A stretch of 54,238 nucleotides of DNA. It comes from a virus (Duplodnaviria > Heunggongvirae > Uroviricota > Caudoviricetes). The notes beneath the pieces are model-generated. The model made no database searches. It saw only the letters and a program-made list of their open reading frames with translations, and had not been told where the DNA came from. Positions 18,161 to 25,584 of this stretch are shown piece by piece. The DNA lies in IMG/VR virus record IMGVR_UViG_2541047842_000005, one strand, 5' to 3'. A program made the position numbers and the translations under genes. Each line of letters starts with the position of its first letter. Position 1 is the first letter of the stretch.

Positions 18161-18888
18161 TGAATTTAGAATCCATTCTGAAATTCCACTTTCCCAAATC
18201 ACCGCGATTATCAGGCGAAAGCCGGGGAACATCCCCGGATGCACTTAATACGACGGATGCGCTTACCGCCGCTGGTATGGCGCAATCGCGCGTAGAGCTT
18301 GGCTATAGTGCTTTTTTAGGGAAAATGGAGCTATCGCAAGCTGAAAAACACAGGGCCGTAATTTTGCTTACAGAGCGTTTAAGGGTTATGGCGAAAGATT
18401 ACGAATACGTGATGGAATTAAATGAAGAACAACGCAATGATCTTATTATTCTTGTTGCCGTTTTCGCGTTTCGGGATTACTGCCAAAGTGCGGCTACCGA
18501 AAAGGTTTGCCCTAAGTGCGGAGGTAACGGGCTTTTACCGAATCCATATTGTGAATACACATCGACAGTTTGCTCGCGGTGCAACGGCAAAGGCTACGTT
18601 AAAAACCATTGCCAGAGGTGCAAGGGGCGTGGCGAAGTACCGGATAAAGCAGCCAGCGAAGCGGCGGAAATGCCAGTATTCAAAACGTGCCAGCATTGCG
18701 GCGGGCGCGGGTACTCGCGTTTCCCTGTAGATCTTGTCCGGCAGGCGGTTAATCAGCTTGTTTTCCAGGTAAGCCGATCAACATGGTGGAAGAAATACCG
18801 CGCTTTCTATGAAGACGCCATTGCTGAATTGTTCAAGGAAGAGGCGCGGGCTGATAACGAAATTAAACGAGTTACGCGGGGTGAATGA
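18160..18888 (+). CDS. putative late antiterminator Q-like protein with four CxxCxGxG zinc-finger repeats
   Basis: 242 aa; CPKCGGNG, CSRCNGKG, CQRCKGRG, CQHCGGRG; position directly after ninG-rusA as Q in lambdoid phages; family assignment is from memory. Confidence 0.45.
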   Translation: MNLESILKFHFPKSPRLSGESRGTSPDALNTTDALTAAGMAQSRVELGYSAFLGKMELSQAEKHRAVILLTERLRVMAKDYEYVMELNEEQRNDLIILVAVFAFRDYCQSAATEKVCPKCGGNGLLPNPYCEYTSTVCSRCNGKGYVKNHCQRCKGRGEVPDKAASEAAEMPVFKTCQHCGGRGYSRFPVDLVRQAVNQLVFQVSRSTWWKKYRAFYEDAIAELFKEEARADNEIKRVTRGE

Positions 18889-19091
18889 TGGATAAACTGG
18901 AAATAAACGATCAGTTTGCCGTTATCTTGTTCGAAGATAAAACAGGCGGCGCATGGTGTAAGAAAGTCACTGGTGCTGAAGCACGCTTAATATTGGGTAT
19001 GGCAAGCGCGTTAAATGATGGCGAATTGCCAGCCGTGCCAATTAAGCCAGTACATATTTACGGACGGAGTAACGACAATGAAAATACTTAA
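18885..19091 (+). CDS. hypothetical protein (68 aa)
   Basis: First gene of the small-ORF island. Confidence 0.4.
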   Translation: MMDKLEINDQFAVILFEDKTGGAWCKKVTGAEARLILGMASALNDGELPAVPIKPVHIYGRSNDNENT

Positions 19092-19425
19092 CATTGAGTG
19101 GCTGTATTGCGAAAACTGCGACGACGATGGCATGGTCGTAAAAACCGAAAAAGGTTGCGGCCTCATGCTGTATCAAGGTGATAAATTCGTTTGTCCTCGC
19201 TGCGGCGGCGGTGGTGAGATAGAAATTGTTGATGATATTGCTACAGCATATAAGCCATCTCGCATTGCCCTTGATGAAAAAATAAAAATTCATCCTTATT
19301 TATTACAGCAAATTATCGATCACGTATCGGCAGCCGCAATCTATAGCGGTAACAATTATCAGCGAGAAATGAACGTCAAACGTGCGATTGAGCAGTATTT
19401 CGAAGGTGACGACAATGAAGCCTAA
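19078..19425 (+). CDS. hypothetical zinc-ribbon protein (115 aa)
   Basis: ATG 19078 with SD GGAG; CENC..CPRCGGGG. Confidence 0.4.
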   Translation: MKILNIEWLYCENCDDDGMVVKTEKGCGLMLYQGDKFVCPRCGGGGEIEIVDDIATAYKPSRIALDEKIKIHPYLLQQIIDHVSAAAIYSGNNYQREMNVKRAIEQYFEGDDNEA

Positions 19426-19684
19426 ATTAAAAGAGCATGAATTTAGGGATCTCATAAACGGAATAACCGATAAAGCTAGGATGTACTCAAATGCGCAACA
19501 GTTAAGGGCGGTTATAGTTACGGAATTAATGAAATACATTGAGCCATGCGGACCAGGCGACGAAATGACTATGGATAAGGCCATCAAGCGCCGTTCGGCT
19601 GATTGGTCGGTTAGTAACACTGGATTAACCGGATACATTGAAGGCTATAACGACTGTTTACAGGATCATGGCAATGAAAAGTAA
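19415..19684 (+). CDS. hypothetical protein (89 aa)
   Basis: Track start 19382; ATG 19415 with SD GAAGGTG. Confidence 0.4.
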   Translation: MKPKLKEHEFRDLINGITDKARMYSNAQQLRAVIVTELMKYIEPCGPGDEMTMDKAIKRRSADWSVSNTGLTGYIEGYNDCLQDHGNEK

Positions 19685-19889
19685 CCGCAAGCGCCTTGTA
19701 AGGGCATACGATAAAGCATTAAAGGCTTTTGATGATCTGCGACACAATAAGCGCCAGCGCCGCAAATGGGCGCGTATGCTTGTTTATGAGTGGCATTATT
19801 CTGATGCTTTCATGGAAAGTGCGCCGCTATTAACACAGGAACAAGCCGACGAAGTAGCTAACGATAACGTTTATTATATGATGTGGTGA
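19668..19889 (+). CDS. hypothetical protein (about 73 aa)
   Basis: Track start 19638 is a TTG; in-frame ATGs at 19668 and 19674. Confidence 0.35.
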   Translation: MAMKSNRKRLVRAYDKALKAFDDLRHNKRQRRKWARMLVYEWHYSDAFMESAPLLTQEQADEVANDNVYYMMW

Positions 19890-19893
19890 TAAT

Positions 19894-20259
19894 ATGCAAA
19901 TAATCATTGATTATCTTTGCCATGCTGCAAATACGCTTTTTGGTTTTTATCAACAACCATTCCTCAAAGAATGGGACGAAATGCTTAATGACATCATTGA
20001 TAAAGGGTTAATAGTTGAGGTTGGCGAGCTAACGATAAAATTTAATTACGAAGGCAAAGAATATGATATATGGGTAGGTAACAGATGGTACGCATACGGG
20101 CATATTTATTCAATTGGCGGCAAATACATTAAACGTAGCCAGGAGTTCAGGCCGCGATTCCGCACAATGCGCCGCCTGCGTGACCTGCATATGAATATAT
20201 TTGAAAATCAGGAAGCGTGTGAACTATTCAAAATCTACGGAGATAAATCATGGAACTAA
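19894..20259 (+). CDS. hypothetical protein (121 aa)
   Basis: ORF in the island; no motif recognised. Confidence 0.45.
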   Translation: MQIIIDYLCHAANTLFGFYQQPFLKEWDEMLNDIIDKGLIVEVGELTIKFNYEGKEYDIWVGNRWYAYGHIYSIGGKYIKRSQEFRPRFRTMRRLRDLHMNIFENQEACELFKIYGDKSWN

Positions 20260-20480
20260 AAATCTGGCAGGGTATCGACGTAGTTGATAATGAATTGTCT
20301 ATGTTCGCCACTAACGGGAAACGCGTGGTGATCGCTACATGGACGCGCAACCATGATGATATAGCTTTTCGTCGCAAGGCTGCGGAGTGGCTTTTCTCTG
20401 ATGAAGGCTACACGATGAATATCTCCCAGCTTGCCAGAATGAAGGATGAAAAGCTGGTTGATAGTTACACAACTGCATAG
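20250..20480 (+). CDS. hypothetical protein (76 aa)
   Basis: Compact ORF. Confidence 0.4.
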   Translation: MELKIWQGIDVVDNELSMFATNGKRVVIATWTRNHDDIAFRRKAAEWLFSDEGYTMNISQLARMKDEKLVDSYTTA

Positions 20481-20490
20481 TGGGGCAAAT

Positions 20491-24227: not shown

Positions 24228-24230
24228 TTT

Positions 24231-24485
24231 ATGGAAATAATCAAAATATGGCGCGGCAACAGTAAGGCTGACGGTGAGTTTTGCCGCGTCGTTCAATTCG
24301 TAAATTATGGTAGGTTTTACGAGCTACCTTATGACAAAAGGAAAGATGATTTCTATTTAAGCGAGTCAATCCCGGTGCACAGAAAAATAAAGGCGCTTAG
24401 GGGGTTATTGCGAAGTGGTTTTTATTCTTGCCCTAACCCATTAAACAATCCTGAACTGGTAGCTATTTTTTACGAAGGAGAATAG
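24231..24485 (+). CDS. hypothetical protein (84 aa)
   Basis: Compact ORF. Confidence 0.4.
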   Translation: MEIIKIWRGNSKADGEFCRVVQFVNYGRFYELPYDKRKDDFYLSESIPVHRKIKALRGLLRSGFYSCPNPLNNPELVAIFYEGE

Positions 24486-24488
24486 ACA

Positions 24489-24908
24489 ATGTCTAAATTT
24501 ATCAGCGTTAAAGTTTTCCGTGGCACTTTACCGAACGAAGAAAGATTAGGACAATTTGCCGGGCAACCTAGTGCATGTTTCCGTGTAGCCACTGAAGACG
24601 ATGCGCATGTTAAATGCTTCCACGTATCGGAACCGCCTTTTAATGCAGACCATCTTGAAGACCCGGATAGAATTAAAAGCCTAGTTTTTGCCTATCTGAT
24701 GTTCCAGGGTATCGCTAATATGGAAGTGGAATTGCTTGGCGCTGAACTGGCGGCAGAATACAAAGTGACTGAAGGCGAAAACGGAGGGGTGGAAATTGAG
24801 CGCATCAAAATAAACCTTACAAGATCCGGTGTAAAGGCGAATACCATGGGTTTACGATTGGTTGCGAATACCTGGGCCACATTGGGTACGGCCCTTTCGG
24901 TGAGTTAG
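24489..24908 (+). CDS. hypothetical protein (139 aa)
   Basis: ORF in the island; no motif recognised. Confidence 0.45.
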   Translation: MSKFISVKVFRGTLPNEERLGQFAGQPSACFRVATEDDAHVKCFHVSEPPFNADHLEDPDRIKSLVFAYLMFQGIANMEVELLGAELAAEYKVTEGENGGVEIERIKINLTRSGVKANTMGLRLVANTWATLGTALSVS

Positions 24909-24910
24909 GG

Positions 24911-25048
24911 ATGAATACGATGGACGACGACGGCGACAGCAGGACGCTTGATCTTGATTCTGATGATTTCGAATACATCCCTCCAGTTACTTACCGTGCC
25001 GTTGATGATTTCCTGGCTGAACATGAAGACGAGGGCGATGATGATTGA
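24911..25048 (+). CDS. small acidic protein (about 42-45 aa)
   Basis: MNTMDDDGDSRTLDLDSDDFEY...EHEDEGDDD; alternative ATG at 24920; not in the ORF track. Confidence 0.25.
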   Translation: MNTMDDDGDSRTLDLDSDDFEYIPPVTYRAVDDFLAEHEDEGDDD

Positions 25049-25235
25049 ATGCCTTATAGCTGTGATTGTTTTGCTTTATATCGCTGGCGCTATCCTGATG
25101 TCTTGTTTTATTAAGTTTAGCGGAGCTGAACCTGGCGGCCTTGAGATTCCTTTTTGGCCTGTGACTGTGTTTATCGCTTTCTTCGACGCTACGGCAGGGC
25201 AGATCAATCGAGCTATTAAGGAGCGCAAGAAATGA
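25038..25235 (+). CDS. small membrane protein (65 aa)
   Basis: MMIECLIAVIVLLYIAGAILMSCFIKF; SD GAGGG upstream; the track ORF 24948-25235 has an unlikely extension. Confidence 0.35.
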   Translation: MMIECLIAVIVLLYIAGAILMSCFIKFSGAEPGGLEIPFWPVTVFIAFFDATAGQINRAIKERKK

Positions 25236-25411
25236 TTGAAGATGGGGTGTACGCAACAGTAGTAGACGGGCTGTTTTACCGCGTAGAAGGTGATGATATT
25301 CGCATCCGCGTTGGCGGTGGTGAGTGGGTAGCGCCAATCATTAAGACGACGCGAGAAACAATTAAAATATTTCTTGATGCTGGTGAACTGGTGAGGGTTA
25401 GCGACCTATGA
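25232..25411 (+). CDS. small hypothetical protein (59 aa)
   Basis: MIEDGVYATVV...; ATGA overlaps on both sides; N-terminus resembles that of the next gene. Confidence 0.3.
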   Translation: MIEDGVYATVVDGLFYRVEGDDIRIRVGGGEWVAPIIKTTRETIKIFLDAGELVRVSDL

Positions 25412-25584
25412 ACGAGATCGAAGATGGTATCTATTTGCATAAGGTATTTAACATCGTCTATTTACTTAAAGGTAATAAGGTGATGATAAGACCTGATGAC
25501 GATCCACATTGGGAATCAAGCGACATGGATCGGCGGCATATGCAAATGTTGCTTGATAACGGCCTGATATATAGAAAGCCGTAA
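25408..25584 (+). CDS. small hypothetical protein (58 aa)
   Basis: MNEIEDGIYLHKV...; not in the ORF track. Confidence 0.3.
   Translation: MNEIEDGIYLHKVFNIVYLLKGNKVMIRPDDDPHWESSDMDRRHMQMLLDNGLIYRKP

Follow-up and report, generated by a model that had tools for sequence, protein, structure and literature searches.

The 54,238-nucleotide stretch analysed here (IMG/VR virus record IMGVR_UViG_2541047842_000005, Caudoviricetes; hereafter the window) carries a block of small genes at positions 18885–25584 on the plus strand, in the order lambda-type Q antiterminator gene, block, lambda-pR'-like promoter/terminator unit and holin gene. The block is a tightly packed chain of 24 small co-directional open reading frames (ORFs), designated g1–g24 and coding for 45–139 amino acids (aa), plus an IS200 element. 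The starts of the ORFs were picked by Shine-Dalgarno context and by agreement with the annotations of relatives. The chain is unbroken on the plus strand from the Q stop at 18888 to 25584, and its end precedes the late promoter/terminator unit by 8 nt. Neighbouring frames overlap at 12 junctions, seven times by 4 nt (ATGA type), once by 1 nt and four times by 10–14 nt, and are separated by gaps of 2–10 nt at nine others; only two gaps are longer, one of 43 nt and one of 98 nt, the latter counted with the insertion sequence removed. From Q onward, beginning with an ATGA overlap between Q and g1, every junction is ≤10 nt up to the spacer after g15. A sequence-only reading of this DNA had counted about thirty ORFs; the dense co-directional chain that it described is real, but the number of frames is 24, plus the transposase gene of IS200. 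Its remark that Q is set apart from the late promoter, unlike in lambda, where Q abuts pR', is borne out by the 6.7 kb and 24 genes that lie between the two. NinG and RusA genes are found just upstream of Q, and the composition of the block is not distinct (GC content of 0.42–0.46, compared with 0.46–0.48 in the flanks).

The closest DNA matches of the 6.7-kb block are the Escherichia phages MagusPhagus, mEp010, mEp044, mEp554, mEp013, mEp021 and mEp515, with 85–88% identity over 23–68% of its length, and a few dozen E. coli prophages match it at up to 97%. Judged by its sequence, the window is a temperate coliphage of the mEpimmI group, related to mEp021 and mEp010. It has been reported that this group, described in 2025, consists of Nus-dependent, non-lambdoid temperate siphophages (PMC11893012). 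A homologue of the N-like antiterminator Gp17 is encoded at 9317–9607, with 93% identity and on the same strand as Q and the block. The same locus is present in mEp021 as gp38–gp45, with equivalents in mEp010, mEp013, mEp044, mEp515 and mEp554, at 85–97% DNA identity in the shared parts; mEp021 has a minimal version of 8 ORFs in 2.0 kb, the window has 24 ORFs and IS200 in 6.8 kb, and both share the same Q and the same t5 terminator. All of gp38–gp45 except gp41 are annotated as hypothetical, and the description of the group does not cover the block, its core and cassette structure, its paralogue family or its internal hairpins (PMC11893012). Of 5,426 complete E. coli genomes, 35 carry the DNA of the block's core, in a single copy each and in the chromosome only; a figure of 3,117 carrier genomes was rejected, as it was produced by copies of IS200.

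The coding status of the frames was assessed in 46 related loci fetched from IMG/VR with the Q protein. Q, holin and lysozyme were located in each, ORF chains were called in each Q-to-holin interval and the 987 products were clustered; with the window, 47 loci were compared. A Q-based scan of one-genome-per-species bacterial contigs found no relative. All families with a window member show a ratio of non-synonymous to synonymous substitution (dN/dS) of 0.10–0.37 at a proportion of synonymous differences (pS) of 0.2–0.55, and the flanking genes Q, RusA, NinG, holin and lysozyme give 0.07–0.12 by the same method. This excess of synonymous over non-synonymous differences means that the ORFs are genes under purifying selection. 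Conservation as coding sequence in related phages, on which the sequence-only reading had made its case depend, is thus present.

Across the 47 loci, Q and holin are 2.0–6.8 kb apart, with a median of 22 ORFs between them; mEp021 has the shortest interval, and the window ties for the largest because of IS200. The whole repertoire amounts to about 40 ortholog-level families, and their order is always the same, with 41 distinct arrangements among the 47 loci. Five parts can be distinguished in the block: a variable head (g1–g5), a universal core (g5/g6–g11, in which g8 is optional), a variable slot (g12–g15), a conserved spacer and a variable tail (g16–g24). The core genes g6, g7, g9, g10 and g11 occur in 46 of the 46 relatives and g5 in 45; these six have the lowest dN/dS of the block (0.10–0.13), equal to that of Q, RusA and lysozyme. 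The other 18 genes of the window are found in 15–42 of the relatives, with a dN/dS 2–4 times that of neighbouring phage genes, and in this comparison they are presence/absence cassettes held in a fixed order. The block had been called fast-evolving; this is apt for its presence/absence mosaic and for the raised dN/dS outside the core, but not for its gene order, which is fixed, nor for the constrained six-gene core. The features are collected in Table 1.

Table 1. Genes and sequence elements of the block and its borders (positions in the window; relatives are the 46 related loci).
Feature	Position	Strand	Remarks
u1	17745–17981	+	78 aa; fifth family A paralogue, upstream of Q; aligns with family A
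Q antiterminator gene	18160–18888	+	242 aa; PF03589 Antiterm E 5.7e-31; phrog_127 E 4e-78
g1	18885–19091	+	68 aa, acidic; phrog_35000, unknown function; 42/46 relatives; dN/dS 0.20
g2	19078–19425	+	115 aa; CxxC...CPRCGGGG zinc ribbon and C-terminal region; 20/46 relatives; dN/dS 0.17
g3	19415–19684	+	89 aa; phrog_29262; 39/46 relatives; dN/dS 0.24
g4	19674–19889	+	71 aa, basic; phrog_8758; 42/46 relatives; dN/dS 0.23
g5	19894–20259	+	121 aa; near-universal core; 45/46 relatives; dN/dS 0.10
g6	20250–20480	+	76 aa; universal core; 46/46 relatives; dN/dS 0.13
g7	20491–20724	+	77 aa; universal core; 46/46 relatives; median identity 95%, most conserved gene of the block
Terminator-like hairpin in g7	20509–20535	+	AAGCGGG-AUAAAA-CCCGCUU and UUUUGUU; g7 codons 7–15; terminator scan
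g8	20721–21008	+	95 aa; cassette within core; phrog_33175; 30/46 relatives
g9	21005–21232	+	75 aa; universal core; phrog_5009; 46/46 relatives; dN/dS 0.10
g10	21237–21452	+	71 aa; universal core; mEp021 gp41 orthologue; 46/46 relatives
g11	21449–21694	+	81 aa, basic; universal core; 46/46 relatives; dN/dS 0.11
g12	21694–21906	+	family A tandem array
g13	21917–22174	+	family A tandem array
g14	22185–22424	+	family A tandem array
g15	22421–22645	+	family A tandem array
CRP-core palindrome	22647–22662		TGTGATCTGTATCACA, perfect; in the sole long conserved intergenic spacer of the block
Terminator-like hairpin after g15	22669–22703	+	U-tract, end TTTTGTT; RNA fold −20.7 kcal/mol, z −4.4
IS200	22704–23414	+	711 bp; tnpA 22847–23305; Y1_Tnp E 3e-37
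g16	23455–23733	+	92 aa; acidic cassette, isoelectric point (pI) 4.4; phrog_7287; 16/46 relatives; family dN/dS 0.23
g17	23744–23884	+	46 aa; acidic cassette, pI 4.1; phrog_22232; 29/46 relatives
GC-rich hairpin between g17 and g18	23890–23905		GGGGCCGGATGGCCCC; −14 kcal/mol, z −2.5
g18	23928–24227	+	99 aa; no PHROG match; 32/46 relatives
g19	24231–24485	+	84 aa; phrog_32200; 27/46 relatives
g20	24489–24908	+	139 aa; phrog_23107; 41/46 relatives
g21	24911–25048	+	45 aa; pI 4.1, Asp/Glu-rich; phrog_25234; 39/46 relatives; dN/dS 0.30
g22	~25023–25235	+	~70 aa; two hydrophobic segments; phrog_10061; 40/46 relatives; dN/dS 0.37
g23	25232–25411	+	59 aa; phrog_15318 E 3e-30; 29/46 relatives
g24	25408–25584	+	58 aa; phrog_15318 E 3e-30; 36/46 relatives
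Putative late promoter/terminator unit	25592–25673	+	−35-like TTGTAG 25592–25597; −10 TAAAAT 25615–25620; −10-like AACAAT 25628–25633; terminator stem 25648–25666, T-tract to 25673
Holin gene	25691–25891	+	lysis cassette
Lysozyme gene	25892–26383	+	lysis cassette
Rz-like gene	26371–26841	+	lysis cassette; with embedded Rz1-like ORF

The borders of the block can be described with reference to lambda. The Q protein is 34% identical to lambda Q in a full-length alignment; it also has a 33-residue insertion relative to lambda Q, with two extra CxxCxGxG knuckles that complete a DnaJ-like four-knuckle zinc module. At the other border, the layout TTGTAG-17-TAAAAT-7-AACAAT parallels that of lambda pR', TTGACT-17-TAAATT-6-AACGAT. 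In lambda, AACGAT is the sigma-dependent pause element required for Q loading, and AACAAT is possibly the corresponding pause element here. In 30 distinct variants of the unit, GATTAAAAT..CTAACAATGCGAAA and the terminator are invariant; the invariant stretch reads GATTAAAAT-ATTNNCT-AACAATGCGAAA and is followed by a GC-rich hairpin with a T-tract. The −35 region occurs in two unrelated versions among these variants, the −35 of the window matches at only 3 of 6 positions, and the −10/AACAAT motif is present in a single copy in the whole window. The terminator is strong by both terminator scan and RNA fold, and its homologue in mEp021, t5, is listed as experimentally demonstrated (PMC11893012). 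The promoter/terminator unit proposed by the sequence-only reading has a strong terminator and a plausible promoter, with the reservation that the −35 is weak and is not conserved in relatives, and the unit is plausibly a Q-dependent late promoter. The possibility that CTAACAATGCGAAATTGTA forms a boxB-like RNA hairpin was rejected, since the common variant disrupts a base pair. The lysis cassette, which forms the downstream boundary of the block, was identified through the annotations of homologues in mEp021, mEp010 and RefSeq prophages.

Within the core, a terminator-like hairpin lies inside the coding sequence of g7; with its U-tract it reads AAGCGGGAUAAAACCCGCUUUUUUGUU, and its RNA fold has −18.8 kcal/mol and a z of −4.1. 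It is invariant at the nucleotide level in 30 of 33 variants; two others have single changes, one giving a G.U wobble in the stem and one a different loop base, and the most divergent variant keeps the stem by a compensatory swap of G-C to C-G through two synonymous changes. Conservation within the 1.8-kb core peaks at the hairpin, where entropy is 0.02–0.09 versus a mean of 0.28, and in a scan of third-position heterozygosity the 8 lowest-scoring windows out of 526 are all found there (0.026 versus a median of 0.237). A Fisher test on polymorphic and non-polymorphic sites, with singletons counted as polymorphic, gave p = 0.28 against the rest of g7 and p = 0.06 against the third positions of the core. 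Neither the mEp021 record nor that of mEp010 annotates the hairpin. A promoter between Q and this hairpin was sought and rejected, the sole candidate (CTGGCA-16-GATAAT in g6) varying at key positions; in the region, sigma-70-like sites number 11 versus 19.6 in shuffled sequence, with no strong site on the plus strand. In addition, the GGGGCCGGATGGCCCC hairpin between g17 and g18 persists where its neighbouring genes change; a T-run accompanies it, and it resembles a terminator, only on the minus strand, where no genes lie nearby, and it may be a module-boundary or RNA-processing element.

The spacer between g15 and g16 holds a perfect CRP-core palindrome, which is the sole match in the window where 0.06 would be expected by chance, followed by the second terminator-like hairpin. 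Before IS200 arrived, the end of this hairpin and ATAAA (23415–23419) formed TGTTATAAA, an extended −10-like motif. Relative to the start that this motif implies, the palindrome is, by our own count, centred about 61 bp upstream, which is class I CRP spacing. The spacer element (22646–22703 together with 23415–23454) is kept in 38 of 49 sequences searched, even with differing flanking genes; roughly one variant in two has a degenerate right CRP half-site. The element may be a combined terminator and CRP-dependent promoter. The IS200 insertion noticed by the sequence-only reading is confirmed by its transposase, by the 5' untranslated region RNA STnc490 at 22714–22837 (146 bits) and by an empty site in an IMG/VR contig (L003), which otherwise matches the window at 100% over 20.7 kb and lacks exactly 711 bp; this fixes the limits of IS200. 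The junctions are clean relative to the empty site, with no target duplication. IS200 is absent from all 46 relatives, and its insertion is very recent. Sitting in an intergenic spacer, it breaks no ORF; it landed exactly within the TGTTATAAA motif, and the CRP site is now 711 bp further from the −10.

The slot g12–g15 is a tandem array of four paralogues, which together with u1 and five alternative cassettes of the relatives make up family A. Its members share a pattern of about 70 residues, C..F..G.IY...D.GD.W.F...A.F, and each block holds 0–5 copies. The paralogue u1 was found by the family profile as P0028 and aligns to the g12 subfamily with an hhalign probability of 66%; as it lies upstream of Q and occurs in 5 of the 46 relatives, family A is not confined to the block after Q. 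The family profile found E. coli prophage proteins only, both in a word-indexed search of 5.8 billion sequences (59 clusters) and in an exhaustive HMMER search (29 hits). An AlphaFold2 model of g14, built from an alignment of 29 sequences, is a six-stranded beta-barrel with a predicted local distance difference test score (pLDDT) of 78 and a predicted template modelling score (pTM) of 0.66. In this model family A is a small barrel with a long beta1–beta2 loop, as in Gp54 of phage Bas11 (PDB 9axb), and is predicted to share the rare six-stranded fold of that protein. A profile search of PDB with family A gave chance titin matches only and did not find 9axb, and direct profile comparison with Gp54 gave an hhalign probability of 0.1% at about 10% identity; as there is no significant sequence similarity, the predicted link holds at the level of fold only. 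In a Foldseek comparison with viral models, the same fold was found in many uncharacterised 65–80-aa proteins of enterobacterial phages, with template modelling (TM) scores of 0.65–0.76. It has been reported that Gp54 is a non-essential protein of 66 aa, not known in function, which directly binds and activates CapRel(SJ46), that its six-stranded barrel topology is very rare, that even close homologues do not activate CapRel, and that it possibly inhibits another system, as its discoverers suggest (PMC11578894). Bas11 gp54 likewise lies within a run of small hypothetical ORFs; Bas11 differs in being a virulent T1-like phage with one Gp54 copy, while the window is a temperate phage with 4–5 family A paralogues. 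Within the explanation preferred below, the most plausible role of g12–g15 is to bind host or defence proteins and modulate them.

The sequence-only reading had also stated that no ORF of the block matches a known function, and this holds against Pfam, NCBIfam, PADLOC, PHROGs and PDB sequences. Scans of the first two libraries, of PADLOC, a library of anti-phage defence models, and of PDB sequences, run on X-linked concatenates, gave no significant match for any of the 24 ORFs. Nearly all of the ORFs matched PHROGs, every significant match being to a family of unknown function. Similarly, exact-sequence look-ups (n = 10) returned hypothetical proteins, apart from a structure-based DnaJ-type zinc finger label for g2, which itself gives a weak DnaJ_CXXCXGXG match (E 0.03). 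For known anti-defence families (such as Ocr, ArdA/KlcA, Ral, Acr, Tad, Gad and Acb), Pfam, NCBIfam, PADLOC and PDB sequences gave no match, dedicated anti-defence hidden Markov models not being part of the search, and no fold match to a solved anti-defence inhibitor was found. Pfam probably includes families such as Ocr, ArdA and Ral. Of the acidic, zinc-ribbon and small membrane proteins that had been announced, eight products are indeed acidic (pI <5) and one, g2, is a zinc ribbon, but a membrane-like product is found only in g22.

Among the core genes, g5 has distant homologues in the Edwardsiella phages GF-2 and Edno5 (44–45% identity) and a weak PHROG match (E 8e-5) to a 'membrane protein' family of the moron/host-takeover category, and g6 corresponds to mEp021 gp38 by position and length only. 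The mEp021 orthologue of g10, gp41, is annotated as a 'virion structural protein' and was detected by mass spectrometry in CsCl-purified virions. Homologue searches with g10 found E. coli proteins only, and a fold search gave no confident match. The C-terminal peptide of g10, KRPANLEEEMLI(D)EV, is kept in 15 of 15 aligned homologues, with 13 of 16 positions invariant, even in two homologues that are only 44–46% identical elsewhere; it overlaps the start of g11 and may be a short binding motif or reflect constraint from the overlapping gene start. In the tail, g17 clusters with g18 (joint family dN/dS of 0.27), the g18-like family has 1–3 copies per block in relatives, g18–g20 have a dN/dS of 0.25–0.36, and g23 and g24 are tandem paralogues (hhalign probability 96%). 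The genes g18, g19 and g20 lie in one frame, parted each time by a stop and one codon (TAA TTT ATG; TAG ACA ATG), which could be a coincidence. In relatives (L049 1953–2261, L050 1684–1983), a gene of about 100 aa between g3 and g4 is labelled 'ASCH domain-containing' or 'RNA-binding protein' in RefSeq; it is the sole named gene of the block, occurs in many relatives and, by the gene-order map, appears to be absent from the window.

With rather more belief than doubt, we take the block to be the distal part of a Gp17-antiterminated rightward (delayed-early) operon, that is, a nin-like accessory region placed after Q. Transcription would start at the early rightward promoter, the N-like Gp17 would make the polymerase resistant to termination, and the polymerase would then run through the replication, recombination and Nin-like genes and Q and straight into g1. 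The hairpins in g7 and after g15 would restrict unmodified transcription to Q and g1–g6; given these internal hairpins, the genes beyond g6 would be expressed mainly from antiterminated polymerase. At the late unit, Q would load onto polymerase paused there and take it past the terminator to the genes for lysis and virion proteins. A role in phage development is probable for the six-gene core, and the cassettes probably code for proteins that modulate host or defence functions by protein binding.

The nin region of lambda consists of about ten small co-directional, overlapping ORFs in the N-antiterminated operon, with internal terminators, and is largely dispensable and mosaic. The block resembles nin (ninA–ninI, between P and Q) in its packed, co-directional and overlapping ORFs, here with a co-directional Gp17 homologue upstream; it differs in lying downstream of Q, in being 2–3 times larger and in having a universal six-gene core. 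Because it lies downstream of Q, its terminators cannot gate Q expression, unlike those of nin. No homology to lambda Nin proteins was seen, none of the 24 ORFs having a Pfam or NCBIfam match. As for the lambda Q switch, the Q-family protein and the terminator are shared, but the adjacency of Q and pR' is not, the two being 2.0–6.8 kb apart in the 47 loci. Several points weigh against placing the block in a delayed-early operon with modulator cassettes. We infer early rather than late timing from the layout only; the proposed late promoter has a weak −35 that relatives do not keep; the g10 orthologue, being virion-associated, fits late expression better than early expression; the g7 hairpin might be a protein-binding or RNA-stability element instead of a terminator; the Gp54 link is one AlphaFold2 model of moderate confidence, with no detectable sequence similarity; and the libraries searched gave no match of any ORF to a defence, anti-defence or host-interaction family.

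Other explanations have to be weighed, and not all of them exclude the delayed-early operon or one another. The sequence-only reading pointed to an anti-defence or host-takeover island, in which most or all of the small ORFs would inhibit restriction, CRISPR, abortive-infection or further defence systems and the diversity would be that of an arms-race hotspot. The genes are indeed small, packed, probably early and unassigned in function, with several acidic products; the turnover of cassettes is high, the non-core dN/dS is raised, and family A is predicted to have the fold of Gp54, a non-essential binder of a defence sensor. In virulent phages such as T4 and T7, too, small early genes form clusters; most of these genes are dispensable, and some encode host-takeover or anti-defence factors. 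Those clusters belong to another phage type with other regulation and share no families with the block, of which a third is universally conserved. The absence of matches in Pfam, PADLOC and PDB sequences, the six universal genes constrained like essential phage genes, the fixed order with about 40 families in total and the purifying selection in all families argue in the other direction, so that we regard this explanation as rather unlikely for the block as a whole, and an anti-defence or host-takeover role is what position and gene size lead one to expect, not something that was found. A more specific idea, which we put forward as speculative and hold to be improbable, is that g12–g15, u1 and the alternative cassettes are diversifying Gp54-like barrels, each binding a different host immune sensor as inhibitor or decoy, with copy number and cassette choice tuning which defences are evaded or triggered, and that, separately, the g7 terminator is a checkpoint that makes the core and cassettes Gp17-dependent. 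The suspicion that the ORFs are open by chance alone, in prophage DNA that is non-coding or decaying, could draw on their shortness, on their lack of a known domain and on the word 'hypothetical' in every public annotation. It is refuted by the substitution pattern and can hardly be entertained: besides the dN/dS values, nearly all have PHROG families, the frames, lengths and order are kept in 46 relatives, some phages of the group form plaques (mEp010, mEp021 and others), and the two proteins modelled with AlphaFold2 gave confident, compact folds.

Two further explanations concern the expression of parts of the block. The true Q-dependent late promoter could lie just downstream of Q, with the g7 hairpin as tR', g7–g24 expressed late and the holin-side unit serving as a second, internal promoter or as no more than a terminator, as in the accessory regions of Stx phages. 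In mEp021, g6 and then g7 come directly after Q, and the hairpin lies an estimated ~270 nt after the Q stop, like lambda Q-pR'-6S-tR'; the presence of the g10 orthologue in virions is as expected for a late protein, and the g7 hairpin is under strong selection at the nucleotide level. This arrangement is nevertheless very doubtful, as the stretch from Q to g7 has no conserved promoter-like sequence, the −10/AACAAT motif has no second copy in the window, 1–7 genes separate Q from g6 in 45 of the 46 relatives, which makes the lambda-like spacing peculiar to mEp021, and the holin-proximal unit is invariant, with the pR' layout. Stx and cryptic lambdoid prophages carry multi-kb variable cargo between Q and holin (stx, tRNAs and nanS-p; cspB/F/I and nmpC); there, pR'-tR' precedes the cargo, which is of the Q-dependent late or the moron type, whereas in the window the pR'-like unit follows the cargo and stands directly before the holin gene. 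Alternatively, g16 onwards could be an autonomous promoter-gene-terminator unit of lysogenic-conversion morons, expressed in the prophage under the control of host CRP and useful to the lysogen through, for example, exclusion or envelope functions. The conserved element with its perfect CRP-core palindrome, the position of the palindrome relative to the start inferred from TGTTATAAA, the upstream terminator hairpin, the retention of the whole element in most sequences and the resemblance of g22 to a small membrane protein would fit such a unit. The degenerate right half-site in many variants, a poor −35 and the lack of a difference in GC content from the flanks speak against it, as does the parting of the CRP site from the −10 by IS200 with no decay of g16–g24, although the insertion is very recent; we consider it unlikely. 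The delayed-early operon remains the explanation that we prefer.

Small-ORF accessory clusters are familiar in phage genomes, and the block, as an ordinary accessory region, overturns nothing. Beyond the existing description of the group, the analysis adds the division into core and cassettes, the array of predicted Gp54-like proteins, the terminator-like hairpin within coding sequence and the CRP/terminator spacer hit by IS200. It has been reported that mEpimmI phages are as common as lambdoid ones in the human faecal collection from which they came (PMC11893012). About a tenth of each mEpimmI genome is this uncharacterised block, and the division into core and cassettes gives a rational order for knock-outs. 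The predicted fold link to Gp54 would connect a temperate-phage family to the CapRel sensor and to many uncharacterised small proteins of T1-like phages, and the putative terminator embedded in g7, together with a Q displaced from its promoter, offers useful cases for the wiring of antitermination outside lambda.

Two other genes of the window lie outside the block. The ORF at 5256–6179 on the minus strand (307 aa), in the leftward region beside a DnaB-type helicase gene (2521–3942, minus strand), has three treble-clef zinc finger or 'CapR homology' repeats followed by a T5orf172 domain, and is homing-endonuclease-like or PLE-CapR-like. A relationship of its 'CapR homology domain' to CapRel or Gp54 was rejected, since CapR, a relative of T5orf172 endonucleases, serves the Vibrio PLE satellite as capsid repressor. 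The ORF at 38966–39625 on the minus strand (219 aa) has the VasI/EvfG domain of type VI secretion (PF11319, E 1e-15); it lies antisense in the tail-gene region and is likely a moron.

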